A stretch of 64,000 nt of DNA from Patescibacteria group bacterium (GCA_041662965.1 JBAZRI010000001.1:227680-291679), one strand, 5' to 3'. Positions 3,813 through 61,416 are shown, counted from the first letter of the stretch. Numbers and translations: made by a program. Notes: a model not told the origin generated them from the letters alone.

Positions 3813-3909
3813 ATTTTTATAATACCTTGCAGGGCCGGTTTAAGCAAGAGTAAAATTTGCCGTTTTTTAAACTTTTCATCCACGTTTTTTCCACTACTGC
3901 CCATAGCCT

Positions 3910-4001
3910 ATAACTCGCAACTCGTAACTAAAAATGCCGCAAAATAAGGAGTTGTGAGTTATGACCCGCCTGCCATACGGGCAGGGTTGCGAGTTGCGGG
4001 A
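3910..4001. repeat. ACTCGTAAC/GTTACGAGT-type short palindromic repeat cluster
   Basis: ataactcgcaactcgtaact ... gagttgtgagttatgac ... cctgcc-atac-gggcagg ... ttgcgagttgcggg. A related block lies at 25358-25426. Confidence 0.6.
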
Positions 4002-4079
4002 GTTTTTCTTGCTATTTTTAAAGATATATGTTATTTTAATAATAATTAAGACATCCGTCAGCACGGATTTTTTAATTTT

Positions 4080-4963: not shown

Positions 4964-6301
4964 ATGAAAAATATTAAAATAAAAATTTATACCTTAGGCT
5001 GTAAAGTTAATCAGTATGATTCGGGTAAACTAGCCGGCGAGCTGGTTCGGGCCGGCTTTATAACCGCGGACAAAAACGCCGATATAGCCGTAATCAATAG
5101 CTGCGCCGTGACTAAAACTGCCATAATTAAAAGCGGCCGCATGGTTAAATTGGCTAAAAAAGAAAACCCCAAAGCTAAAATCGTTTTAGCCGGCTGCTGG
5201 CCGAAAACCTATGGAATAAAGAATATTGCCGCTGATTTTATTATTGCCAAAGGCGAGGTCGGCGAGGCTATTAAAAAAATTGCGAATCGCTTCTCTCTAT
5301 TTAAGGATAAGATCTTTACGCCGGCTATCGCCGAGCTCGCGCTAACCGGCCGGACAAGGTATTTTATAAAAATTCAGGACGGCTGCGAGCAGTATTGCAG
5401 TTATTGCGTTATCCCTTACGCGCGCGGCAAATTAATTAGCAGGGGAGAGAAAGAAATTATTCGCGAAATTGAACGGGCGGTAAAAGCCGGATATCGGGAG
5501 ATCGTGCTGTCCGGAATCCATTTAGGGTTGTATGGAAAAACGAGCCAATTGTCATTGCGAGCGACCGGAGGGAGCGAAGCAATCTCACGTACTCGGAGCT
5601 TAACCGGAGATTGCCGCGTCGCTGGCGCTCCTCGCAATGACAAGCTGACGGCATTATTAAAAAAATTAGTTAAAATAAAAGATCTCGGCCGGATCAGGTT
5701 AAGTTCAATTGAAATCACCGAAGTATCGAGCGAGCTGATAAATTTAATGGCCGGGTCAAATAAAATTTGTAAGCATCTGCATATACCATTGCAGTCCGGC
5801 TCGGATAAAATTTTAAAATTAATGAATCGGCCATATGATGTAAAATATTTTTCTGGCCGGATAAAAAAAATTAGGCAAATTATGCCGGATATTGCCATTA
5901 CTACCGACGTGATTACCGGCTTCCCGGGCGAGACCGAGAAAGATTTTAAAGACACGGAAAAATTTATTAAGCGGATAAAATTCAGCCGTCTGCATGTGTT
6001 TCCATATTCGGCTCACGAAAAAACGCCGGCCGCTAAATTCCCCGGCCAAGTTAAAGAAAAAAATAAAGCGCAACGGGCGGAAAAATTAAGGCGGCTTGGC
6101 CTTAAGCTGGCTGAAGATTATAAAAAGAAATTCAAGGGCAGGGAGCTGGAGATTACCGTGGAGCGGATAAAGCAAGATGAAATTATCGGTAAAACCGAGT
6201 TTTATTTTGATATTTTATTTAAAAAGCGACAGCTTATCGGCGGAGAAGCCAGCCAAAGTAAAAAATTAATAGGCACGATTGTTAAGGTAAAAAACAATTA
6301 A
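4964..6301 (+). CDS. mtaB: MiaB/MtaB-family radical-SAM tRNA methylthiotransferase carrying an in-frame repeat insertion
   Basis: MTTase N-domain (IYTLGCKVNQYDS), radical-SAM cluster (GCEQYCSYCVIPYARG) and a TRAM-like C-terminus. Residues LSLRATGGSEAISRTRSLTGDCRVAGAPRNDK are encoded by a palindromic repeat. Confidence 0.85.
   Translation: MKNIKIKIYTLGCKVNQYDSGKLAGELVRAGFITADKNADIAVINSCAVTKTAIIKSGRMVKLAKKENPKAKIVLAGCWPKTYGIKNIAADFIIAKGEVGEAIKKIANRFSLFKDKIFTPAIAELALTGRTRYFIKIQDGCEQYCSYCVIPYARGKLISRGEKEIIREIERAVKAGYREIVLSGIHLGLYGKTSQLSLRATGGSEAISRTRSLTGDCRVAGAPRNDKLTALLKKLVKIKDLGRIRLSSIEITEVSSELINLMAGSNKICKHLHIPLQSGSDKILKLMNRPYDVKYFSGRIKKIRQIMPDIAITTDVITGFPGETEKDFKDTEKFIKRIKFSRLHVFPYSAHEKTPAAKFPGQVKEKNKAQRAEKLRRLGLKLAEDYKKKFKGRELEITVERIKQDEIIGKTEFYFDILFKKRQLIGGEASQSKKLIGTIVKVKNN
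5550..5642. repeat. TGTCAT-hairpin palindromic element inserted in frame inside the mtaB-like CDS
   Basis: 93 bp (31 codons), TGTCATTGCGAGCGACCGGAGGGAGCGAAGCAATCTC ... GAGATTGCCGCGTCGCTGGCGCTCCTCGCAATGACA. Near-identical in layout to 58563-58654. Confidence 0.85.
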
Positions 6302-11394: not shown

Positions 11395-11982
11395 ATGAAA
11401 AGATTATTGATAATTGCAGTAATGTTGGCAGTCATCGCCGTTGGTGCAAACCTGGCAATGGCGGCCGAGTTAAGGGATCTTGACAAGGAAGGAAACGGTT
11501 TTATTATTGAGGCAACTGCGACGGGTTTTACCGTTACGGTTATTGACAGGTTTACAAAATTGTCAGCACCATTTACGGGGCCGGATGCTAGTAGTTGGAT
11601 CCAGGAAAAAGGGGGCGTATCGCTGATCTCCACGGCCGGTTGGGTCGTGGATGGTAAAAAGGGCAACGCCAAGAGTGCGTCCTATGATGTCAAGGCAGGG
11701 GAAGGCAAGGCGGTTTATGTTTTTGCGGTCAACCCTTCAGTGGTTGGTAAACCGGTTAATGTTGCCGTGAGCAACGGGTCGGTAAACGACCAGCGGTCAA
11801 TCTGGCTGTGTCCGCCCTGGACCAGCCAAGTATTCTTCGCACGGGCGAACAACGCCCACCCGGACGGCGAGCACATGATATTCTTCCAGCTGGAAGGGGA
11901 AATCGTGCGCTCCGTCGTTGATGAGGCAAAAAAGGGAGGTTGGATTCCGGCGGCCGTTTACCATGCCGCCAAAATGAAATAA
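11395..11982 (+). CDS. Secreted hypothetical protein
   Basis: SD GGGAGGT upstream of the ATG at 11395, signal peptide MKRLLIIAVMLAVIAVGANLAMA. No family recognised. Confidence 0.5.
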   Translation: MKRLLIIAVMLAVIAVGANLAMAAELRDLDKEGNGFIIEATATGFTVTVIDRFTKLSAPFTGPDASSWIQEKGGVSLISTAGWVVDGKKGNAKSASYDVKAGEGKAVYVFAVNPSVVGKPVNVAVSNGSVNDQRSIWLCPPWTSQVFFARANNAHPDGEHMIFFQLEGEIVRSVVDEAKKGGWIPAAVYHAAKMK

Positions 11983-17187: not shown

Positions 17188-18411
17188 ATGTCAAGAGTAT
17201 TAAAAATTCTACAAATAAATAAATTTTATTATTTAAAAGGCGGCAGCGAGCGGCATATGTTTGATATAACTCAAATATTAGAACAAAAAGGCCATGCCGT
17301 AATACCTTTTTCAATGCAAGATCCGAGAAATAAAACCTCTGAATACGATAAATATTTTATAAGCGAAGTAGATTTGAATAAATTCAGCCTGAAAAATATT
17401 GTAAAGTTTTTTTGGAATTACGACGCGGTTAGAAAGCTGGAAATATTAATTAGAAATGAGAAGCCCGATATCGCCCACTTGCATAATATCGCGCACCAGT
17501 TTAGCCCGGCGATTATATATGTTTTAAAAAAGCATAAAATACCCGTTGTCCAGACTTTGCATGATTATAAATTAATTTGCCCCAATTATAAGCTATTTAA
17601 TAAAAATAAGGCTTGCCTGAAATGTTTAAACGGAAAATATTATAATTGCTTTTTGGGCGAGTGCGTGAAAAATTCTTACTTAAAAAGTTTTTTGGCTATG
17701 CTCGAAGCGTATTTATATAAATGGTTAAGAACATATGCTTTGGTTGATTTATTTATCGCTCCCAGCCAGTTTATGAAAGATAAATGCGTTGAATCAGGAA
17801 TCAAGGAAGAAAAAATTAAAATATTAAGACATTTTGTAGATGATAAATATTTTAGTATTAATAGCGAGGTCGGAGATTATCTATTGTATTTCGGCCGCTT
17901 ATCTGATGAAAAAGGAGTTGATATTTTATTTAGGGCCATGCGGGAAACTAATAGCGGGCAGAGATTAAAAATTGTCGGCGCCGGCCCGGATTATGAAAAG
18001 TATAAATTAAAAATTTTGGATAGCCGACTCTCGGAAAAAGTTGAGTTATGCGGGCCTAAATATGATGATGAGCTTATTGGAATCGTTAAACAGGCTAAAG
18101 CCATTATTATGCCGTCAGTTTGGCCGGAGAATATGCCATATAGCCTTTTGGAAGCTATGGCTATGGGAAAAGTAGTTATCGCTTCACGGATCGGCGGCAT
18201 GGCAGAGGTTATAAATGATAAGGCCAACGGATTTTTATTCAGGGCGGGTGGCGAAAAAGAATTAGCCTCGATTATGAACAATTTGGGTAATTGCAATCTA
18301 GAGAAAATCGGTGAAATGGCGAGAGAATCAGCCAGTCGCAATAAAAAAGACGAATACTGCGAAAGTCTTTTGCGTATTTATCAAGGAGCGGAAAGGCAGG
18401 CGCGTTTATGA
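17188..18411 (+). CDS. Glycosyltransferase family 4 (GT-B fold)
   Basis: EAMAMGKVVIASRIGGMAEVINDKANGFLF motif. Start moved to MSRVLKILQINKFYY. TATATT box 7 nt upstream of that ATG. Confidence 0.8.
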   Translation: MSRVLKILQINKFYYLKGGSERHMFDITQILEQKGHAVIPFSMQDPRNKTSEYDKYFISEVDLNKFSLKNIVKFFWNYDAVRKLEILIRNEKPDIAHLHNIAHQFSPAIIYVLKKHKIPVVQTLHDYKLICPNYKLFNKNKACLKCLNGKYYNCFLGECVKNSYLKSFLAMLEAYLYKWLRTYALVDLFIAPSQFMKDKCVESGIKEEKIKILRHFVDDKYFSINSEVGDYLLYFGRLSDEKGVDILFRAMRETNSGQRLKIVGAGPDYEKYKLKILDSRLSEKVELCGPKYDDELIGIVKQAKAIIMPSVWPENMPYSLLEAMAMGKVVIASRIGGMAEVINDKANGFLFRAGGEKELASIMNNLGNCNLEKIGEMARESASRNKKDEYCESLLRIYQGAERQARL

Positions 18412-20441
18412 TAATTAACAATCATAAAAAAATATTAATTTTTTTTCTTAGTTTATTATTAAACCTTGGTTTGTTTAGCGATACGGCATCGGCGGAAATT
18501 AAAAGTGATTATCCCAAAATCGCCAATTATTATCTTCAGCCATGGATGCCGGCTGAAGACGCGGACGAATTATATAAATACGATTTAATTATTCTTGACG
18601 CGGACGTTGATACGGTAAATCCGGAGCTTATTCCCGGTATAAAAAAGAAAAACCCAAAAGCTATAATACTTGCTTATATTCCTGCCCAGGGAGTTAATAC
18701 CGAGGACTTAAATTCATGGGCAAAACTAAGAAGAGAAGAATATAAAATAATTAAAGACAATGATTGGTGGTTAAAAGACAGCCGGGGCGATATAATTAAT
18801 TTTTCAAATATTTGGCCGAATATTAAGTTTGTTGATCCGGGCAAAGGCTGGGCTGATTATTTATCCACGGCCGCGAAAAATGAATTATCCGACAACACTT
18901 ACTGGGATGGAATTTTTTATGACATGATGTTTGCTAATTTGGGATGGCTGAATAATGGAGATATAGATATAAATCAGGACGGTAAGAAGGATGATATAAG
19001 CTTGGTGAATCAGTATTGGCAAAAGCAGATGAATGATTTGCTTAAAAAAACCAAAGATAAGATCGGCGGCAAATTGCTTTTGGCGAATGTTGATATAGTC
19101 GATAAGTATGCCGGGTTGCTTAACGGCACGATGATGGAAAATTTTCCGGCTGCTTGGCTGGGTAAAAACGGCTGGTCGATATTAACTGATCAATATGTAA
19201 ATAATCTGCCTTTGATTAATCAATTTCCGAATATTTATATTATTAATTCAAATTTGAATAATGCCGAAGTGATGAGCGATTTTTCCGCCATGCGCTTCGG
19301 TTTAACCAGCACTCTGCTCGGCGGCGGTTATTATTCTTTTGATTACGGCGATCAGGATCATTCTCAAAATTGGTGGTACGATGAGTATGATGTAAATTTA
19401 GGCATATCGATGTCGAACCCCTACAACCTGCTGAACAGAAGCAGCCAGGCCGTGAAACTTGGGCTATGGCGCAGGGATTTTGAATTCGGTGTTTCAATAG
19501 TAAATTCAACCAGCGAGAAGCAAAGGTATATTTTTTTAAAAGAGGAATTTGAGAAAATTAACGGCGCCCAGGACAGAAGAGTAAATAATGGAACTAAAGT
19601 TAATTATATAGACCTAGAGCCTAAAGACGGCGTTGTATTATTGAAAATTGATAATATGATTAAGGAAAACAGCTTCAACAACGGCAGTTTTGTCCGTGTT
19701 TTTAACCAAGCCGGAGATCAGACAAGAAACGGTTTTTTTTCATATCTTGATAGTTATTCCGGCAGCGTTACTGTTTTAAATAGCGATATTGATAATGACG
19801 GCAGAATTGAGACCCTGGTCAACGGCCAAGGCGTGATTACAATATACAAAGACGGGAAAGCAGTTTCAAATTTTTGCGTTTATGATAGAAAATTTAATGG
19901 GGATGTTTCATTCGCCGTCGGCGATCTTAACGGCGACGGCACCAAAGAGATTATCACCGGAGCCGGACCGGGCGGCGGCCCTCAGGTGCGGATATTTTCA
20001 AAGGACGGCCGGCCTCTAACCGGCGGATTTTTCGCCTATGATAAAAATTTCCGCGGCGGAGTGAATGTGGCGGTTATAGATCTTAACGGCGACGGCACCA
20101 AAGAGATTATCACCGGAGCCGGACCGGGCGGCGGTCCTCAGGTGCGGGTATTTTCAAAGGACGGCCGGCCTCTAAACGGCGGATTTTTCGCTTATGATAA
20201 AAATTTCCGCGGCGGAGTAGATTTGGCAGTCGGTGATCTTGATGGCGACGGCACCAAAGAGATTATTGCCGGAGCCGGGCCGGGAGGCGCGCCTGAAGTA
20301 AAAATTTTTAGCAAAGACGGTAAATTATCAAGCGCTTTTATGGCTTATAACCACAACGATAAAAATGGTATAATGGTAATGTCTAATGATATCAATAGTG
20401 ATAAGGTGGATGAAATTTTGGTAAGTTTAAGAGGGAATTAA
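18408..20441 (+). CDS. Secreted protein: N-terminal putative glycoside-hydrolase-like domain plus C-terminal FG-GAP/VCBS-type repeats
   Basis: Signal peptide. YPKIANYYL..DLIILDADV region (weak GHL-type resemblance). Repeats GDLNGDGTKEIITGAGPGGGPQVR.FSKDGRPL.GGFFAYDKNFRGG. Confidence 0.6.
   Translation: MIINNHKKILIFFLSLLLNLGLFSDTASAEIKSDYPKIANYYLQPWMPAEDADELYKYDLIILDADVDTVNPELIPGIKKKNPKAIILAYIPAQGVNTEDLNSWAKLRREEYKIIKDNDWWLKDSRGDIINFSNIWPNIKFVDPGKGWADYLSTAAKNELSDNTYWDGIFYDMMFANLGWLNNGDIDINQDGKKDDISLVNQYWQKQMNDLLKKTKDKIGGKLLLANVDIVDKYAGLLNGTMMENFPAAWLGKNGWSILTDQYVNNLPLINQFPNIYIINSNLNNAEVMSDFSAMRFGLTSTLLGGGYYSFDYGDQDHSQNWWYDEYDVNLGISMSNPYNLLNRSSQAVKLGLWRRDFEFGVSIVNSTSEKQRYIFLKEEFEKINGAQDRRVNNGTKVNYIDLEPKDGVVLLKIDNMIKENSFNNGSFVRVFNQAGDQTRNGFFSYLDSYSGSVTVLNSDIDNDGRIETLVNGQGVITIYKDGKAVSNFCVYDRKFNGDVSFAVGDLNGDGTKEIITGAGPGGGPQVRIFSKDGRPLTGGFFAYDKNFRGGVNVAVIDLNGDGTKEIITGAGPGGGPQVRVFSKDGRPLNGGFFAYDKNFRGGVDLAVGDLDGDGTKEIIAGAGPGGAPEVKIFSKDGKLSSAFMAYNHNDKNGIMVMSNDINSDKVDEILVSLRGN
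19923..20390 (+). repeat. Three tandem 156-bp near-identical coding repeats (52-aa FG-GAP-like units)
   Basis: gatcttaacggcgacggcaccaaagagattatcaccggagcc recurs at 19923, 20079 and 20235. The first two copies are almost identical at the DNA level. Confidence 0.85.
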
Positions 20442-28708: not shown

Positions 28709-30790
28709 ATGTCGTTTTGGAAAAAAAGACAAAACAGCGGTGGTAAAATAAATAATAGTCGCATTAATTTAATAATTGCGATTGTTTTTTTATTGGCCGG
28801 AGTTATTATTTACAGATTAATTGATCTGCAGATATTAAATTATGATTTATATTACAGCTTAGCCTCGGATCAGCATCAAATCTATAATCTTTTAAGTCCG
28901 ACTCGCGGCCGGATTTTTATTCAAAATGACGTTAAGAGCGCCGATAACCGGCTTTATCCCATCGCCACCAATAAAAATTTCGCCTTGCTTTTCGCCGTGC
29001 CCAAAGACATAAAAGGCGTAAAAGAAGCCGAGAGGATCAGCGAACAGCTTTATGTGATTTTCAAAAAAGAGAAAATTGAGCAAGAAGTTGAGGAGATTTT
29101 CATAAAAGAAGACGCTGATAATCTAAGCGCCCAGCTTAAAGCTTTAGGCGATATAAAAGACGAAGCCGGCAAGATTAAAGAAGCGGAAATAATCGCTCGG
29201 CATCAAGCCATCCAATCCGATAAATCATTTCAAGATATAAGGCAAGTTAGGCGGGAAGCGGAAATTAATTTGAGGAAAAAAGAAATTATCGGCGCCTATT
29301 TAAAAAAGCTTGATAAGCCGGGCGATATTTATGAACCGCTTGAGCAAAAAGTTGACGAGGCGGTTTTAAAAAATTTCTATCTGGCCGCCGGCCGGCCGGT
29401 TGATGATGTAAAGATTGAAGATTTGGAAGTTGACGGCAATACGATGGTTATTTTAAACCATGAAGCAGAAAAAGAATTAAAAATAGACGGCATTGGTTTT
29501 TCCGAAAGTTCATTTCGTTTTTACCCCGAAGGCAATATCGGCTCTAACATCTTAGGCTTTGTCGGCTACGCGGGCGATAAGCTAGAGGGCCGGTATGGCC
29601 TTGAAGGATTTTTTGATCAAGAGCTTACCGGCTCTCCGGGCTCAATAAAGATTGAGCGCGACGCCAAAGGCTACCCGATAATTATTAATGACCGCGAATA
29701 CAATAAGGCGGACGACGGCAGCGATTTAATTTTAACCATTAACCGGTCTATCCAGTTTATGGCTTGCCAAAAATTAAATGAAGCGGTTAAGAGGCATGGC
29801 GCCGACGGCGGCAGCGTCATAATTTTAGAGCCTGATACCGGAGCGGTTTTGGCCATGTGCTCAAGCCCTGATTATGACGGCAATAATTTTCAAGAAACCA
29901 AAGATATTAAGGATTTTACCAATCCGGCGATTTTCTCCCAATACGAGCCCGGCTCAATTTTTAAAGTCATCACCATGGCTATGGCTTTAGACCGGGAAAA
30001 GATAACCCCGCAAACTACCTACGACGACACCGGGCAGGTTATAATTTCCAAATATAAAATAGAAAATTCCGACCATAAGGCCAACGGCGTGCAAACTATG
30101 TCCGAGGTGCTGGAAAAATCTTTAAATACCGGCGCTATTTTCGCTATGAGAGCCATCGGGCCTGATTTATTTTCCGAATACGTGAAAAAATTCGGTTTTG
30201 GCGAAAAAACCGGCATTGAGCTTGAAGGCGAAAGCAAAGGCGATATAAAAAATTTAATAAAAAAACCCGTGGGCGAGCTTTACGCGGCTACAGCTTCCTT
30301 CGGCCAAGGCATGGCGGTTACGCCAATACAAATAGCTGCGGCCTTTTTAGCTTTAGCTAATAATGGCATAATGATGCAGCCTTATATTGTTAAAGAAATA
30401 ATCAAGCCTGACGGCGCTAAAATTGAAACCAAGCCTAAAATAGTCGGCCGGGTAGTTTCGGAAAAGGCCACTGTTATTTTAGGCGGCATGATGGTTAATG
30501 TGGTAGAAAAGGGCCATGGTAAATTGGCCGGCGTTAAAGGCTATTACGTCGCCGGGAAAACCGGTACGGCCCAGGTTCCGGCGAAAAACGGCGGCTATCA
30601 GGCCGGCGCCCATATCGGCTCTTTCGCCGGTTATGCTCCGGTCGATAATCCGAAATTCGTCATGCTGGTCAGAATTGACCAGCCGCGAGACGTTGAATGG
30701 GCGGAAAGCTCGGCCGCGCCTTTATTTGGCGAATTGGCTGAATATATGCTAAATTATTGGCAGGTGCCTAAGGAAAGAAACATCAATTAA
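28709..30790 (+). CDS. ftsI: Penicillin-binding protein 2 / FtsI-type transpeptidase
   Basis: N-terminal TM. SxxK (GSIFK), SxN (SLN) and KTG (GKTGTA) motifs. Contains an extra ~120-aa charged, coiled-coil-like insertion in the N-terminal domain. Confidence 0.9.
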   Translation: MSFWKKRQNSGGKINNSRINLIIAIVFLLAGVIIYRLIDLQILNYDLYYSLASDQHQIYNLLSPTRGRIFIQNDVKSADNRLYPIATNKNFALLFAVPKDIKGVKEAERISEQLYVIFKKEKIEQEVEEIFIKEDADNLSAQLKALGDIKDEAGKIKEAEIIARHQAIQSDKSFQDIRQVRREAEINLRKKEIIGAYLKKLDKPGDIYEPLEQKVDEAVLKNFYLAAGRPVDDVKIEDLEVDGNTMVILNHEAEKELKIDGIGFSESSFRFYPEGNIGSNILGFVGYAGDKLEGRYGLEGFFDQELTGSPGSIKIERDAKGYPIIINDREYNKADDGSDLILTINRSIQFMACQKLNEAVKRHGADGGSVIILEPDTGAVLAMCSSPDYDGNNFQETKDIKDFTNPAIFSQYEPGSIFKVITMAMALDREKITPQTTYDDTGQVIISKYKIENSDHKANGVQTMSEVLEKSLNTGAIFAMRAIGPDLFSEYVKKFGFGEKTGIELEGESKGDIKNLIKKPVGELYAATASFGQGMAVTPIQIAAAFLALANNGIMMQPYIVKEIIKPDGAKIETKPKIVGRVVSEKATVILGGMMVNVVEKGHGKLAGVKGYYVAGKTGTAQVPAKNGGYQAGAHIGSFAGYAPVDNPKFVMLVRIDQPRDVEWAESSAAPLFGELAEYMLNYWQVPKERNIN

Positions 30791-34116: not shown

Positions 34117-34247
34117 TGTCATTGCGAGGAGACTTGTAATCAAGTCGACGAAGCAATCTCTGGTTAAGTTCAGAGTACGTGAGATTGTGAAGTTTATCCC
34201 GAGCGATAGCAAGGGACCTGCATTCCTTTCAGTCGCTCGCAATGACA
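34117..34247. repeat. TGTCAT-hairpin palindromic element, ORF-less copy in a divergent promoter region
   Basis: TGTCATTGCGAGGAGACTTGTAATCAAGTCGACGAAGCAATCTC ... GAGATTGTGAAG ... CAGTCGCTCGCAATGACA. Confidence 0.8.
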
Positions 34248-36879: not shown

Positions 36880-36885
36880 GAAAAA

Positions 36886-37025
36886 ATGTAAAATGTAAAT
36901 TTCAAAATGAAAAATGACAATGTAAAGTTACTTGTCCCGCCTCGCTTACGGGGTCGGGGAAAATTATAAAATTAGGCAATTTTACATTTTGAATTGTCAT
37001 TTTAAACTTTGATCTTTAAATTTTT
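36886..37025. repeat. AATGACAATG/TGTAAA-type AT-rich inverted repeat flanking a GC-rich core
   Basis: tgtaaaatgtaaatttcaaaatgaaaaatgacaatgtaaag ... cccgcctcgcttacggggtcgggg ... caattttacattttgaattgtcattttaaac. Confidence 0.6.
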
Positions 37026-37217
37026 AATTAGTTATACTATACATTATAGTATACGAGGGGTAATAGGGCAAATTATACTAGTCTGTTTACTAAAATTAGC
37101 CAATATATTTATTATTAGTTGATTTTTTTAGTGAATTGTGTTAAGATATAATTTAAATATTTAGTGTGGATAGGGGGAAGGGGATAGTTTTTTCAAAATT
37201 TAATTATGGAGGGGAAA

Positions 37218-40511: not shown

Positions 40512-40593
40512 TGTCATTGCGGGCTTGACCCGCAATCCAGAAACTTGTTAATTGCGATTAAACATGGATTCCGGCTCGTAGGCCGGAATGACA
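40512..40593. repeat. TGTCAT-hairpin palindromic element (variant stems) in the clpB 5' leader
   Basis: TGTCATTGCGGGCTTGACCCGCAATCC ... GGATTCCGGCTCGTAGGCCGGAATGACA. Confidence 0.75.
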
Positions 40594-43620: not shown

Positions 43621-44089
43621 TGTCATTTCGACCGAAGGGAGAAATCTATAATACAAGGAAAGCGCTTTATTATGCGAAAAGAATACCAATTTTTTGTTTA
43701 TATTTTAAGCAATTACGAAAGAACAACTTTATATGTAGGTTTTACTAATAATATAATAAGGAGAATGATTGAACATAAAAACGGCCTAGGCTCTAAGTTT
43801 ACTAAATTATACAAGTTAACAGATTTACTTTATTACGAACAACACCAATATGTTAACGATGCCATTTCCAGAGAAAAAGAAATAAAAAAATGGCGTCGCG
43901 AAAAAAAGATTAATTTGATAAAATCAAAAAATAAAATGATGAATGATTTAAGCGATAAGTTATTTTCAGAATATGATATTTCCGAAAAAGAAATTAAAGA
44001 TTATGTAGGTAGTTTAAAAAATAATTGATATATTAGTTTAAGTATTAACCTATTATAGATCTCTCCTCCCTGTGGTCGTCGAGATGACA
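43621..44089 (+). mobile_element. GIY-YIG gene bracketed by inverted TGTCAT-hairpin termini (candidate autonomous element, copy 2)
   Basis: Left end TGTCATTTCGACCGAAGGGAGAAATCTAT (43621-43649). Right end ATAGATCTCTCCTCCCTGTGGTCGTCGAGATGACA (44055-44089). Confidence 0.6.
43672..44028 (+). CDS. GIY-YIG nuclease family protein (118 aa)
   Basis: FFVYILSN..TLYVGFTNNIIRRMIEHKNG ... AISREKEIKKWRREKKINLIKS. Paralog of 53371-53667. Confidence 0.8.
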   Translation: MRKEYQFFVYILSNYERTTLYVGFTNNIIRRMIEHKNGLGSKFTKLYKLTDLLYYEQHQYVNDAISREKEIKKWRREKKINLIKSKNKMMNDLSDKLFSEYDISEKEIKDYVGSLKNN

Positions 44090-48023: not shown

Positions 48024-48062
48024 TCATTTCAATAAATCTAAATTTCTACGGGCTTAACCTAG

Positions 48063-48107
48063 ATTCCCGCCCGCCTAGCGGACTGGTAAACCTGCGCGGG
48101 AATGACA
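48063..48107. repeat. Solo TGTCAT-hairpin unit just 3' of the metallopeptidase-like gene
   Basis: ATTCCCGC-ccgcctagcggactggtaaacct-GCGGGAATGACA. A degenerate partner aGTCATTTC lies at 48022. Confidence 0.6.
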
Positions 48108-53296: not shown

Positions 53297-53740
53297 TGTC
53301 ATCCCGAGTGAGCGCATCTGCCAATCGGCAGATGAGCGACGAGGGATCTCGTTAAATGCAATAATGTAAATTATAAAAAATCTATTATTAAGTCTTTAAA
53401 TATTAAGTTGTTACTTTTTATTAAGTTTATTTTCTTTTCTCTGCGCCAGCCTTTTAATTCTTTTTCTCTGGAGATGGCGTAGCTAATATCATTAAATATT
53501 TCATAATAAACTAATTTATTGATATTGTACTTCGCGGTAAAACTTTTTGGAAATTTTTTATTTTTATGTTCATAGCAGCGGTTCAATAGATTATTGGTAA
53601 CTCCGATATAAAATCGTTTATTATTGATGTTAGTTAAAATATAAATATAGTAAGTATATTCTTTCATCTTTAAATTATATTATCATTTTATCGCGCTTTG
53701 CCGAGATCCCTCTGCCGCTGAAGCGGCATTCGGGATGACA
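53297..53740 (-). mobile_element. GIY-YIG gene bracketed by inverted TGTCAT-hairpin termini (candidate autonomous element, copy 1)
   Basis: TGTCATCCCGAGTGAGCGCATCTGCCAATCGGCAGATGAGCGACGAGGGATCTCG (53297-53351) and CGAGATCCCTCTGCCGCTGAAGCGGCATTCGGGATGACA (53702-53740). Confidence 0.65.
53371..53667 (-). CDS. GIY-YIG nuclease family protein (98 aa)
   Basis: YYIYILTN..RFYIGVTNNLLNRCYEHKN ... AISREKELKGWRREKKINLIKS. Confidence 0.8.
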   Translation of the reverse strand: MKEYTYYIYILTNINNKRFYIGVTNNLLNRCYEHKNKKFPKSFTAKYNINKLVYYEIFNDISYAISREKELKGWRREKKINLIKSNNLIFKDLIIDFL

Positions 53741-57860: not shown

Positions 57861-58553
57861 TTATAGGTTATGCTTTTGCTTGATTATGGCCATGGCTTGA
57901 TTGTATTTTTTAACCCGGGGCAGCCAGGGAAATAGTTTATAAGCGCAGGACGGCAGCCAGCCGCTCATAGTCTGCGTGCCGCCTAAGGCAAGCTTAAAAA
58001 GAATTTGGTCGGCGAAAACTCCCGTATGGCCCTGTTCCAGCATAGTCAGCCAAAGATCCCAGTCTTGGAATTTTTTTATAGCTTCGTCAAAGCCGGGAAA
58101 ATGCTCGCGCTTGATTAATGAAGTTGTAGTGATGTAAGGCATCTCTTTAAGCTTCTCGGCGTCAAACGGCCAAAGCTTGAATTTTTTACGGCCCCAGATA
58201 AAAGACGAATAGCAGAAGCTGGCGCTTAGGTTATTTTTTAAAGTTTTCAGCATCACTTCAAGCATAAACGGCTTCATGACAGCGTCGGCGTCGCAAAAAA
58301 TTATATATTCTCCGCCGGCTAATTTAGCGCCTTTATTCCTGGCCGCGGCCGCTCCCCTGTTTTCCTGCTCGGTGTAAGATAATTTCAAGCCGAAAATTTG
58401 CTTGAATTTTTCAATCACTTTAATTATATTATCCGTTGAGCCGTCGTCAACCACGATAATTTCATAATTACCGTAAGTTTGTTTTTTAATGCCGGCTAAG
58501 CAATTAGCCAGATGTTCGGCCTGATTATAAACCGGGATAATAATGCTTATCAT
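57861..58553 (-). CDS. Glycosyltransferase family 2
   Basis: ISIIIPVYNQAEHL, VVDDGSTD, CDADA. Start moved to MISIII because the tracked N-terminus (to 58649) is repeat-encoded. Confidence 0.85.
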   Translation of the reverse strand: MISIIIPVYNQAEHLANCLAGIKKQTYGNYEIIVVDDGSTDNIIKVIEKFKQIFGLKLSYTEQENRGAAAARNKGAKLAGGEYIIFCDADAVMKPFMLEVMLKTLKNNLSASFCYSSFIWGRKKFKLWPFDAEKLKEMPYITTTSLIKREHFPGFDEAIKKFQDWDLWLTMLEQGHTGVFADQILFKLALGGTQTMSGWLPSCAYKLFPWLPRVKKYNQAMAIIKQKHNL

Positions 58554-58562
58554 ATTGTTATT

Positions 58563-58654
58563 TGTCATTGCGAGCGACCGCAGGGAGCGCGGCAATCTCA
58601 CATACGTGGGATTTAACCAGAGATTGCTTCGTCGCTGCGCTTCTCGCAATGACA
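58563..58654. repeat. TGTCAT-hairpin palindromic element, ORF-less copy between GT4 and GT2
   Basis: TGTCATTGCGAGCGACCGCAGGGAGCGCGGCAATCTCACATACGTGGGATTTAACCAGAGATTGCTTCGTCGCTGCGCTTCTCGCAATGACA. Confidence 0.85.
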
Positions 58655-59803
58655 GTGAGAGAATGTTATTGCTTTATATATTTTTTTAATCTGTTTTTCC
58701 CAATTAAATTCTTTGATCGCTCGCTCTCTCCCCTGCTCGCCTAATTTTTTTCGCAGTCCGGGATCCCGGGCTAATTTAATGATAGCCGAAGCGATTTGCT
58801 CCGTATCTTCGGGATCAACTAAGAGGCCGTTTAAGCCGGCTATTACGGCGTCGCCGACTCCGCCGCTTTTGCCGGCTATTACCGGCTTGCCGGCCAGATT
58901 AGCTTCCAGATAAACTAGGCCAAAGCCCTCAAAATCGCCGTTAATATTTCGGCTAGGCATAATAAAGATGTCGCTGGCATTATACCAATTATCGCGCTCC
59001 TTGTCCGTAGCTTGATTTATTATTATAACTTGTTTTTCCAATCCCAAATTTGAAATTTGAAATTTTAAATTTTTTAATTCGGCTCCGCCGCCTAAAATAA
59101 TATAAATTAAATTCGGCGCTTGTCTTAGCGCTTCCGGCAGAGCTTCTATGACTTTATCAAAACCTTTGCGTTTTACCAGCCTGCCGACCGATAATAAAAT
59201 TATTTTATCGGTTAAATTATATTGTTTTTTTAAAGCAGAAATTTTTTCCGGCGCCGCCGGCCGCGCCGGCTCAATCGCCGGGTTAACGACGGCTATTTTA
59301 TCCGCGCTTAACGGGAAAAATTGTTTGGTTAAATTCGCCGTGTAGCCGTTTAAGCAAATTATTTTATGGGTATTAGATAAAATTTTTTTAGCCAGCCATT
59401 TTTTTCTGGGTTTCTTCAAGGCGTAAGTTAAATCCATGCCGTGTAAAAATACCGAATATTTTATTTTAAAAAATTTGGCGCAAATCAACGCGGCCGCGCC
59501 TAAGGGCAAAATTTGGCCGACTAAAATATGCTCGATTTTTTCTTGTTTTATTTCCCGCCGCAAAGCGAAATAAGCCGGCAGCCATTTTAACAGCGGCAGT
59601 TTATTATTAATCAAGCGCCCATCCTTGTTATCAAGCACGGAAATTTCGTCCGGCTTGGGCTTGCCCTCCGACTTGTCCGCCAAAGCTTTAGCGTCGGTGG
59701 AAGCTTTAGCGAAGGAGGGCCAGTATTTTACCAGATTACCGTAATAATTGGCCACGCCGCCATGAAACGGCGGATATTCTAATGTAAATAATAGAGTTTT
59801 CAT
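58613..59803 (-). CDS. Glycosyltransferase family 4 whose last ~14 codons and stop lie inside a palindromic repeat; also carries an internal repeat-encoded insert
   Basis: GFGLVYLEANLAGKPVIAGKSGGVGDAV motif. The C-terminus ...FSHCHCEKRSDEAISG is repeat-encoded. The FAKASTDAKALADKSEGKPKP insert lies near the N-terminus. Confidence 0.8.
   Translation of the reverse strand: MKTLLFTLEYPPFHGGVANYYGNLVKYWPSFAKASTDAKALADKSEGKPKPDEISVLDNKDGRLINNKLPLLKWLPAYFALRREIKQEKIEHILVGQILPLGAAALICAKFFKIKYSVFLHGMDLTYALKKPRKKWLAKKILSNTHKIICLNGYTANLTKQFFPLSADKIAVVNPAIEPARPAAPEKISALKKQYNLTDKIILLSVGRLVKRKGFDKVIEALPEALRQAPNLIYIILGGGAELKNLKFQISNLGLEKQVIIINQATDKERDNWYNASDIFIMPSRNINGDFEGFGLVYLEANLAGKPVIAGKSGGVGDAVIAGLNGLLVDPEDTEQIASAIIKLARDPGLRKKLGEQGRERAIKEFNWEKQIKKIYKAITFSHCHCEKRSDEAISG
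59663..59720. repeat. GCCCTCC...GGAGGGC palindromic repeat inside the GT4 CDS
   Basis: gccctccgacttgtccgccaaagctttagcgtcggtggaagctttagcgaaggagggc. A related sequence (gcccgcctcgctaaagctatggcggacaagccggc) lies at 25675-25712. Confidence 0.65.
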
Positions 59804-59816
59804 TTTAGATTGCCTG

Positions 59817-59847
59817 GACGTCCGACGTCCCCGGGACGTCGGACGTC
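59817..59847. repeat. 31-nt perfect GC-rich palindrome between wzx-like and GT4
   Basis: GACGTCCGACGTCCCCGGGACGTCGGACGTC. Confidence 0.8.
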
Positions 59848-59848
59848 T

Positions 59849-61291
59849 TTATGATTTTTTACTGAAAGATTGATAAATGCTTATCACGTCTTCCTTTTTA
59901 AAGCCTTTAAAGATATATAAAGCGATAAAGTAGCTTAAGCCGGCTAAGATAACGGTTAAAATAAGATTGACTTGATTTTTTAAATAATAGCCGACCGCGC
60001 CCATGACCGCTACGGCCAAAAGCGACTTTACTGATATGGCGATTATTTTTTTATAATCATATTTAGTGATTCGCGGAACTATCCACATGCTCAAAATAAA
60101 CATCAGTAAATTAGTCAGCAAGGCGGTTAAACTGGCGCCGGCCGCCTCTAAGCGGGGTATTAAAATTAAATTTAAAATAACGCTCGCCGTTAAGACAATG
60201 CCCATATTGATAGTATTGGTTTTTTGCCGGTCGCAGGCGTTTAAAAGCGATCCGGCCGGAAAGTTTAAAAACATAAAAACGACCGCGCCCATGGTAATTT
60301 GCAATGGTAAAATCGCGTCGTTAAAGCCGCTTTTAAAAATTATCATTATTTTATCGGCTAAAATTATTCCGCCGACGGAAACCGGCAAAGAAATGATTAT
60401 TAAATAATTCATGGCGCGCTCAAAAGTAATGGCCAGCTGTTCGCGGTTATTATGCCAATAATGGCTTAAGGCGGGGAAAAGCGAAGCCACGAAAGCCATG
60501 GGCAGAAACTGTAAAGCGAAAATAATTTTAAAAGGAATTTGGTAGATGCCTACTTGATGGTCGCCCGAGAGAAGCGAGAGCATGACCGAATCAAGATACA
60601 TGTAAAGCCGCTGGAAAATAGCGTAAACCGCGAAAGGCAGGGAAATCATTAAGATGCTTTTAATTAAAATTTTATCCGGCCGCCAATTAATTTTAAGCTT
60701 CCATCTGGTTTTTAAAATATAAAATGAAAAAATTAAATTATACAGGCTGGCTAAAACCAAGGACATCATCAGCCAGACAAGCCCCAGATTGAATTTTAAG
60801 ACGGTTAAAATTACGGCCAGAACGATTAGCTGGAAGATAACCGAAGAGATGCTTTCGTATTTTAAGTTATGGAAACCGCGGCTAACCGCGAAAAAGGTTA
60901 AAGTAAAAGAATCTAGGGCCATGCAAAACATGGAAAGATAAACCAGCTGGCGGGTTATCTCGGGATAAGCCGAAAAATTTATTAGGCTGAAAGCCGCCAG
61001 CATAGCTAGTAGAGCCAAAGGCAGCTTAATTAAAAAAACCGAGCTGAAGAATTTCTCGGCATTGTCCGGGCGCTTGGCCACTTCGCGCGTCAGGACGCTG
61101 GATTGGCCGATATCAATAAAAATTCCGAAGATGGAAGTGAAAGAAATGGCAAAGTAATATTTGCCTAAATCGGCCGGGCCGATGGCGCGGGCGATTAAAA
61201 CAAAATAAGTGAAAGAAATTATTTTTTGCAGTATTAAAGCCAAGGTGAAGTAAGACGTATTCTTGGCGATATTAGTAATTTTTTCGGCCAT
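59849..61291 (-). CDS. Wzx-like oligosaccharide flippase (MOP superfamily)
   Basis: 480 aa, about 12-14 TM segments, and the N-terminal IAKNTSYFTLALILQKIISFTYFVLIARAIGPADLGKY pattern. Confidence 0.75.
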   Translation of the reverse strand: MAEKITNIAKNTSYFTLALILQKIISFTYFVLIARAIGPADLGKYYFAISFTSIFGIFIDIGQSSVLTREVAKRPDNAEKFFSSVFLIKLPLALLAMLAAFSLINFSAYPEITRQLVYLSMFCMALDSFTLTFFAVSRGFHNLKYESISSVIFQLIVLAVILTVLKFNLGLVWLMMSLVLASLYNLIFSFYILKTRWKLKINWRPDKILIKSILMISLPFAVYAIFQRLYMYLDSVMLSLLSGDHQVGIYQIPFKIIFALQFLPMAFVASLFPALSHYWHNNREQLAITFERAMNYLIIISLPVSVGGIILADKIMIIFKSGFNDAILPLQITMGAVVFMFLNFPAGSLLNACDRQKTNTINMGIVLTASVILNLILIPRLEAAGASLTALLTNLLMFILSMWIVPRITKYDYKKIIAISVKSLLAVAVMGAVGYYLKNQVNLILTVILAGLSYFIALYIFKGFKKEDVISIYQSFSKKS

Positions 61292-61392
61292 AAAATATGT
61301 TAATATTATAGCTTATTTTTAATAAAAATAAAACCCCGTTTTTTAAACAAGGTTTTATTGTATATTTGATATTTGTATATTATAAATTCTGG

Positions 61393-61416
61393 ATTCCCGC
61401 CTACGCGGGAATGACA
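61393..61416. repeat. Solo TGTCAT-hairpin unit immediately 3' of rpsI
   Basis: ATTCCCGC-ctac-GCGGGAATGACA, 5 nt after the rpsI stop. Confidence 0.6.

Follow-up and report, generated by a model that had tools for sequence, protein, structure and literature searches.

Five short hairpin elements with no ORF of their own, dispersed through a Patescibacteria window (by which is meant the whole stretch of 64,000 nucleotides analysed here), are an example from a new phylum of a class of repeat that has already been described, that is, the CGTC/TGTC-tagged REPs and the NTS/SRM repeats of the Ssn nucleases. We are fairly confident that they are head-to-head dimers of TGTC-tagged hairpins (inverted SRM pairs), which form the gene-less counterparts of arm–ssn–arm units and are mobile. 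The class itself is published, the repeat in 2013 and the partner nuclease in 2025, and the value of the present finding is accordingly a comparative one.

The repeats were catalogued in 2013 as CGTC-tagged REPs, in which the tag is often TGTC, stem positions 1–2 are AT and the tail is CCA; they occur mostly as head-to-head dimers with spacers of 20–100 bp that are often conserved, their intragenic dimers sometimes encode 20–30 amino acids, and they include the dRS3/NIME units of Neisseria and the RPE-4/RPE-6 units of Rickettsia (Di Nocera et al., PMC3733652). The partner enzymes are the Ssn family of single-domain GIY-YIG proteins of about 94 amino acids (CDD cd10448), the genes of which are typically flanked by repeats in an IS-like layout (Chenal et al. 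2025, PMC11893778). The Neisseria and Wolbachia Ssn proteins bind the hairpin only as ssDNA, and only one strand of it, and cut a few nucleotides 5′; the GTC before the palindrome matters for cleavage and the C after it is the most critical base for binding (PMC11893778). The Neisseria repeat is the NTS, CGTCATTCCCGCGMAVGCGGGAATCYRG, and its generalised form is the Ssn-related motif, or SRM (PMC11893778).

Hairpin elements of the window

The ORF-less doublets, the coordinates of which are given without strand, are from 82 to 139 bp long. That at 58563–58654 (92 bp; left arm 58563–58601 on the + strand, right arm 58617–58654 on the − strand) belongs to the 93-nt subfamily of the ATTGCGAG arm family, as does the 93-bp doublet at 5550–5642. 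The earlier note had remarked upon the like length and layout of these two copies, and they are indeed 84% identical over 76 nt, core included. The same core, in reverse orientation, occupies the 131-bp doublet at 34117–34247, in which the loops of both arms are remodelled and which lies between the divergent genes def (−) and ORF 34307 (+). The 139-bp doublet at 1291–1429 also has ATTGCGAG arms; it lies in the rplU–recR spacer, placed after the rplU terminator, and has the additional AT-rich core that had been described for it, here measured at about 65 nt. The fifth doublet (40512–40593, 82 bp, 16 nt upstream of the clpB start) belongs to a second family with arms ATTGCGGG and ATTCCGGC, such that the single TGTCAT element proposed earlier for all of the copies holds for the shared TGTCAT…ATGACA termini and not for the arm family. 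This 82-nt type is conserved, being found also in two other genomes (L005 and L059) with a mean column identity of 91%.

Two further units carry a gene and two arms stand alone, as had been noted. The gene-bearing units lie at 43621–44089 (+ strand; ssn ORF 43672–44028, 118 amino acids; arms ATTTCGAC and ATCTCGAC) and at 53297–53740 (− strand; ssn ORF 53371–53667, 98 amino acids; ATCCCGA-type arms), where the second occupies the whole spacer from lysS to the next gene. The solo arms, both on the − strand, are at 61389–61416, with the sequence TGTCATTCCCGCGTAGGCGGGAATCCAG, and at 48062–48107, with a ATTCCCGC stem and a long loop, to which 48024–48042 is a possible, very degenerate partner. All the elements together amount to about 1.5 kb, or 2.4% of the window.

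The five ORF-less copies are recovered far above chance. The termini of each are complementary (12/12 of the first 14 nt), and a scan of the window for TGTCAT…ATGACA pairing returned seven elements, namely the five without an ORF and the two with a small one. The 14-mer TGTCATTGCGAGCG, with up to two mismatches allowed, occurs 10 times in the window where 0.32 occurrences are expected. A strict search for arms, defined as GTC followed by a palindrome with AT at both ends and then by C, found 16 of them against 2.5 expected from shuffles; 15 of these are real and the remaining one, at 28912, is probably due to chance, while the diverged arm at 34247 was missed. A second assembly (L168) is 100% identical to the window over 16.3 kb and provides 5 kb extra, with no further arms and no polymorphism. 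A search of the literature with the arm sequence returned unrelated primers only.

Other repeats are present in the same DNA. A perfect palindrome with a 15-bp stem, GGACGTCCGACGTCC-CCG-GGACGTCGGACGTC, unrelated to the TGTC arms, lies at 59816–59848 in the 45-nt spacer of ORFs 58613–59803 and 59849–61291, and three tandem 156-bp repeats (73–92% identical) lie at 19872–20320 within ORF 18408–20441. At 36885–37029 there is an AT-rich inverted repeat with ATGACA…TGTCAT facing inward around the GC-rich hairpin gtcccgcctcgcttacggggtcgggg, without the arm signature. Finally, imperfect intergenic inverted repeats with the words aactcgtaac or acttgtaac are found at 3900–4010 of the window, at 11450–11485 of L008 and after lysS in L013 and L017, and may be another short repeat family common to the window and its relatives.

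Arm anatomy and folding

All 16 arms of the nine elements open with (T)GTCAT, placing GTC directly 5′ of the palindrome. Directly 3′ of the palindrome there is a C followed by T or C in 15 of the 15 real arms (in a search that did not demand the C), an ending of the form AT-C(T/C) that three chance TGTCAT hairpins of the window lack. The tail is CCA in the arms at 40512, 40593 and 61389, and CTC or CTA in the remaining arms. The rule of an 8–9-bp stem with a 4–5-nt loop is followed only by the ATTCCCGC, ATTGCGGG and ATTCCGGC arms; the ATTGCGAG arms have an outer stem of only 5 bp and a loop that is long or bulged.

The arm at 61389–61416 is nearly identical to the Neisseria NTS consensus, and is the sole arm to match the published SRM search pattern, HGTCWYN(0-2)YYVSBRHN(0-5)WNVSBRGN(0-2)RNCYNB, for which the null expectation is 0.07 per window. 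This pattern was derived from 29 mostly proteobacterial genomes, and it goes unmatched by 15 of the 16 arms, including the ten doublet arms and the four arms of the ssn units; the non-matching arms are therefore divergent variants of the SRM/TGTC-REP class.

As ssDNA, clean hairpins of 8 bp are formed both by the 61389 arm (−8.9 kcal/mol, z −4.2) and by the arms of the 40512 element, the stems of which are perfect. Single ATTGCGAG arms are no stabler than shuffles (−7.2 and −4.5 kcal/mol, z −1.1 and +0.2), and it is the ATTGCGAG dimers that form, as ssDNA, one long hairpin of −26.2 to −28.3 kcal/mol (z −4 to −6). In other words, the arms of this family have a stable fold only as the whole dimer, and the manner of recognition established for SRM hairpins is therefore uncertain for them.

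Hairpins of this strength, −19 to −28 kcal/mol with z of −4 to −6 over the elements, which moreover separate co-directional genes, follow stop codons and precede clpB, would suit a role in gene regulation as REP-like elements of RNA or transcription, be it as terminators, attenuators or stabilisers of mRNA. We nevertheless regard such a role as quite improbable. Intrinsic terminators were considered and rejected, as no arm is followed by a T-run and a terminator scan does not flag the arms; indeed, the gene beside the 61389 solo arm has a separate canonical terminator at 61327–61359. Nor is there an Rfam match, even at E ≤ 1: the gathering search over the whole window returned three tRNAs only, and the search at E ≤ 1 around 58400–58800 returned nothing. 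One copy, furthermore, is probably translated within mtaB, and the positions of the elements are unconserved among relatives (see below for both).

GIY-YIG genes and their association with the arms

Both ssn ORFs of the window have Pfam GIY-YIG as their sole domain (E 1e-16 and 9e-14) and align from end to end, with 41% and 40% identity, to an NTS-flanked ORF of 94 amino acids from N. gonorrhoeae, the SsnA orthologue, which was found by tblastn of plasmid records, its source being a chromosome filed as a plasmid. The catalytic residues that align with Y6, Y17 and E64, which experiment has found to be essential, are invariantly Y, Y and E in the window ORFs. Against NCBIfam the ORFs gave only sub-threshold matches to group I intron endonucleases, and against the PDB none. 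On the gonococcal chromosome (L087, 2.17 Mb), a gene-less NTS pair of ~100 bp lies with its tags outward at 918–1016, downstream of the ssnA orthologue; the dimer layout of the window is therefore also present in Neisseria.

The association of arms with ssn extends well beyond the window. Among 80 metagenomic ssn loci, retrieved using the Ssn alignment, an arm lies within 250–300 nt of ssn in 73, and on both sides of it in 49. Arm density is 5.2 per kb beside ssn versus 0.6 per kb farther off, an 8.6-fold local enrichment; the most frequent layout has the tags pointing outward, the same as in the window, and the arm families co-vary with the ssn locus.

Within the 64-kb window, by comparison, no arm family is common to any of the five doublets and either resident GIY-YIG unit, and no ssn gene has ATTGCGAG or ATTGCGGG arms. 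One complete ssn unit with ATTGCGAG arms, the sole such unit found, lies on an unrelated metagenome contig (L117), and the commonest dimer family therefore has a gene-bearing counterpart in nature. Moreover, the AT-rich cores of the 1291 doublet and of three related dimers have no similarity to four ssn units beyond that of shuffled controls; as the cores hold no detectable ssn remnant, derivation by deletion is unproven. The ORF-less copies are gene-less relatives of the hairpin-bounded units, and in this sense the earlier description of them as derivatives of the GIY-YIG units stands.

These data bear on whether the dimers might be moved by some other enzyme, such as a tyrosine transposase of the IS200/IS605 or RAYT type, or some further transposase encoded at another place in the genome, in which case the link with GIY-YIG would be one of co-location. 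The 2013 survey, having found no dedicated transposase for the CGTC REPs, raised this option (PMC3733652), and it draws further strength from GIY-YIG enzymes being without joining activity and from there being no arm-matched ssn within the window. It has, however, to be set against the enrichment of arms around ssn and the co-variation of their families with the ssn locus, and against the arm–ssn–arm units, which are present or absent as wholes; furthermore, Pfam searches of neighbouring genes place no transposase beside any element of the window or of the loci examined. On balance another mover is improbable, and it is the pairing of the dimers with Ssn that is pursued below.

A different small GIY-YIG ORF (110–125 amino acids) lies beside tRNA-Lys in two other loci (L003, 9282–9614; L004, 934–1311). 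It is preceded by a duplicated fragment of the tRNA 5′ end and followed by a partial copy of the 3′ end, and so looks like an insertion into, or next to, a tRNA gene. TGTC-tagged arms are lacking, and the ORF is missing from L001, a close relative.

Copies within host coding sequence

The ORF-less copies had been described as scattered through the window. They do lack an ORF of their own, but two of them form part of host genes, which the earlier note missed. The doublet at 5550–5642 is not intergenic: it is an in-frame insert of 31 codons in mtaB (4964–6301, + strand), which encodes a methylthiotransferase of the MiaB/RimO family (radical-SAM), and it adds the residues LSLRATGGSEAISRTRSLTGDCRVAGAPRND, with peptide stretches such as LSLRATGGSEAISR. 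In the AlphaFold model of the window MtaB the insert (residues 194–224) is a loop that leads from a barrel strand to the following helix, with pLDDT < 50 and confident prediction on either side. The 58563 doublet sits between two glycosyltransferase genes, GT4 (58613–59803, − strand) and GT2, and encodes the last 13 residues of GT4, CHCEKRSDEAISG, together with its stop codon; in relatives the protein ends earlier.

The nearest named relatives of the window MtaB are from Candidatus Falkowbacteria, the next best homologue being about 68% identical. The loop, delimited by GIHLG and RLSSIE, has 25–30 residues in ‘empty’ homologues and 50–80 in at least 25 others, and in the long loops at least four arm families can be recognised by their signature peptides, with insert positions that differ by a few codons. 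On a rough NJ tree of 60 loop-masked sequences the filled or empty state changes at least 21 times, and sister sequences differ in it (for example P0004/P0012 and P0007/P0015). The DNA of the loop presents the same picture, being filled in L001 and empty in its close relative L003, and in L005 an 82-nt dimer is nested within a decayed ATTGCGAG dimer.

Among 39 gene-less dimers, 34 are intergenic and five lie in ORFs; all five of the latter are in mtaB and keep the frame. The lengths of the 34 intergenic dimers, taken modulo 3, are 0 in 12 cases, 1 in 16 and 2 in six, that is, without bias towards 3n. Frame-keeping inserts in mtaB beside unbiased intergenic ones fit selective filtering and read-through translation rather than splicing. 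That many relatives have an insert at the same mtaB loop could be taken to mean that the insert is fixed structural sequence, or that the mtaB copy is removed, like an intron or intein, at the RNA or protein level. We consider this very improbable, given that the inserts are of at least four arm families, are shifted by a few codons and alternate with empty sisters, that the coding inserts are 3n and stop-free where the intergenic dimers are not so biased, which argues for translation, and that neither motifs of introns or inteins nor any Rfam match is seen.

A second variable region of MtaB (columns about 150–220 of alignment A1, window residues about 110–130) also holds arm-signature peptides, for example SFRPPSRNPD… in P0017 and …YRLLAMT in P0036, which brings the insertion-tolerant loops of mtaB to at least two. 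More generally, the repeats explain recurrent odd peptide inserts and C-terminal tails in annotated CPR proteins, and such inserts matter for the annotation and structure prediction of reduced genomes.

Presence and absence among relatives

The comparison set comprised about 90 syntenic Patescibacteria loci; a LysRS scan of the genome collection gave 80 syntenic loci at 60–86% identity. Empty sites in relatives, which the earlier note had proposed should be sought, were found in clean form in two cases, the doublet at 58563 and the ssn unit at 53297. At the GT4/GT2 junction a doublet of this family is present in the window and in L008, and absent from L007, L009 and L011, in which GT4 and GT2 overlap without a spacer. 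The 53297 ssn unit occupies the same lysS spacer in L033, and L007, L010, L011, L013 and L017 have clean empty spacers of 8–40 nt. At the rplU–recR site the relatives have a gene of 118 amino acids that is missing from the window, and there is therefore no clean empty-site comparison for the 1291 doublet. No target-site duplication is seen in the filled-versus-empty comparisons at mtaB, GT4/GT2 and the lysS spacer. Reciprocal cases occur in which it is the window spacer that is empty: a ATTGCGAG dimer follows the homologue of 52886 in L033 (2767–2937), and another lies between the homologues of 55860 and 55320 in L008 (9233–9325).

The ssn unit shared with L033 has diverged less than its surroundings. 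Window 53297–53740 and L033 1914–2357 are 94.1% identical in nucleotides, the arms being 94.5–98.6% identical, and the flanking genes are 79–86% identical, with divergence resuming right outside the arms. This suggests a more recent arrival of the unit, or exchange or homing to the same spacer; strong constraint is a less likely cause of the difference.

Over 1.28 Mb, the inverted arm pairs are bimodal in length, 39 of 56–169 bp, which are ORF-less with their tags outward, and four of 418–467 bp. Among 10 syntenic genomes, 3 of about 13 occupied spacers are common to any two. At single sites gain and loss are inseparable, LysRS identity being only about 85% even to the nearest relatives. Taken over all sites, related Patescibacteria differ by gain, loss, nesting and replacement of both dimers and ssn units, which is the behaviour of mobile DNA. 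The copies are, in other words, not fixed in position across relatives, as they would be were they structural or regulatory sequence in the sense of the earlier note; their presence differs from one syntenic genome to the next.

An account of a different kind is that the repeats are recognition marks kept by the host, at which Ssn cuts adjoining incoming or exposed ssDNA and so tunes recombination or transformation near particular genes, with change in copy number as a by-product. Restriction of incoming ssDNA in Neisseria is the sole role of an Ssn/NTS pair that has been demonstrated experimentally (PMC11893778), both ssn genes of the window are intact and keep their catalytic residues, and the arms lie at gene borders in operons. 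Such marks leave unexplained, however, the nested insertions, the in-frame inserts in an essential tRNA-modification gene, the turnover of arm families at one site and an ssn unit that two genomes have at the same site and that seems younger than the genes around it; their positions, too, are hardly common among relatives. As the main explanation, host-kept marks are thus rather unlikely, though the two readings are not exclusive of one another.

Proposed mobilisation of the dimers

On the preferred reading, that of mobile inverted SRM pairs, the determinants of the arm that Ssn would read on ssDNA are the GTC 5′ of the palindrome, its AT…AT ends and the C that follows. The tags of the dimers point outward, and Ssn would therefore nick opposite strands, each just outside the element. 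The dimers would be non-autonomous, relying in trans on an Ssn of matching specificity, and host replication or repair would do the joining, a logic like that of REPIN/RAYT with a different enzyme. Insertions would then last where they are harmless, that is, in spacers, at gene ends and in permissive protein loops, where they would be transcribed and, in mtaB and GT4, also translated.

Whether the dimers are mobilised in this way, in trans by a matching Ssn with joining by host replication or repair, is in our estimation evenly balanced, GIY-YIG enzymes being unable to join DNA. To our knowledge GIY-YIG nucleases form no covalent intermediate, and they would therefore carry out no strand transfer by themselves. 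The nesting and the re-use of sites point either to existing hairpins being preferred as targets or to strong filtering, by which only insertions at permissive positions are left. More tentatively, and with somewhat more doubt than belief, the Ssn/SRM units may be truly mobile as such, with the dimers mobilised in trans via ssDNA and re-using sites in a homing-like manner and landing preferentially in or beside existing copies. If this is true, the puzzle left in 2013 of CGTC REPs without a transposase would be answered, with a GIY-YIG Ssn as the driver of a REPIN-like system, and elements of Patescibacteria would repeatedly write peptides of 20–45 residues (LSLRA…APRND, SVIPA…PAMTN, CHCE..DEAIS) into essential proteins such as MtaB.

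Comparison with known systems

The attC sites, Correia elements and IS200/IS605 ends were rejected as identities for the window elements on sequence grounds and for absence of partner genes. With classical MITEs (Correia, MITEAba12) the elements share their shortness (82–139 bp here), terminal inverted repeats, the lack of an ORF, insertion polymorphism and the capacity to add coding sequence to host genes, and to this extent the MITE analogy drawn earlier is apt, the copies being gene-less and not fixed. They are not, however, classical MITEs: no target-site duplication was found for them, there is no parent IS with a DDE transposase, and their termini are putative structured hairpins for protein recognition rather than simple TIRs.

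The other analogy drawn earlier, with REPINs, is borne out by the organisation of the copies as inverted arm pairs. As in REPIN/RAYT systems, two hairpin repeats in inverted orientation together form one long hairpin, with recognition presumed to be on ssDNA, and gene-less copies far outnumber a partner gene that is itself flanked by the repeats. The likeness is one of analogy only, as the partner gene in the window is a GIY-YIG nuclease, with no known joining chemistry, and not an HUH tyrosine transposase, and the tag is (C/T)GTC versus GTAG.

A further parallel lies in Rickettsia, where Ogata and colleagues, cited in PMC3733652, reportedly described, in 2000, RPE-1 palindromic repeats that stand in frame in housekeeping genes and are tolerated as surface peptide segments. 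The in-frame palindromic inserts in housekeeping genes, and their variable presence among relatives, are alike in the two cases; RPE-1 is longer, and the mtaB site differs in being re-used by several arm families.

The resemblance to the CGTC/TGTC REPs is closer. All window arms have the unpaired TGTC tag and the AT start of the stem, head-to-head dimers predominate, in-gene copies are coding, and the 40512 and 61389 arms fit exactly the 8–9-bp stem, 4–5-nt loop and CCA tail. The differences are that Patescibacteria lie outside the five phyla listed in the 2013 paper, which knew no partner enzyme (PMC3733652), and that the ATTGCGAG family departs from the stem and loop rule.

With the NTS/SRM–Ssn system, finally, the elements share the GTC(A/T)(T/C) tag, the AT-initiated palindrome and the C that follows it, the placing of arms around a GIY-YIG gene for ~94–118 amino acids, and the dispersal of many gene-less copies in the genome. 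They differ in phylum, and the ATTGCGAG, ATTGCGGG, ATTCCGGC, ATCCCGA and ATTTCGA arms miss the published pattern, such that the class is here extended to the candidate phyla radiation, with arm families beyond that pattern. The window proteins are known from sequence, in distinction to those studied by Chenal et al.; the present comparison contributes in turn the empty, filled and nested sites, and a unit apparently younger than its flanks, as evidence for a mobility by gain and loss that was only hypothesised in PMC11893778.
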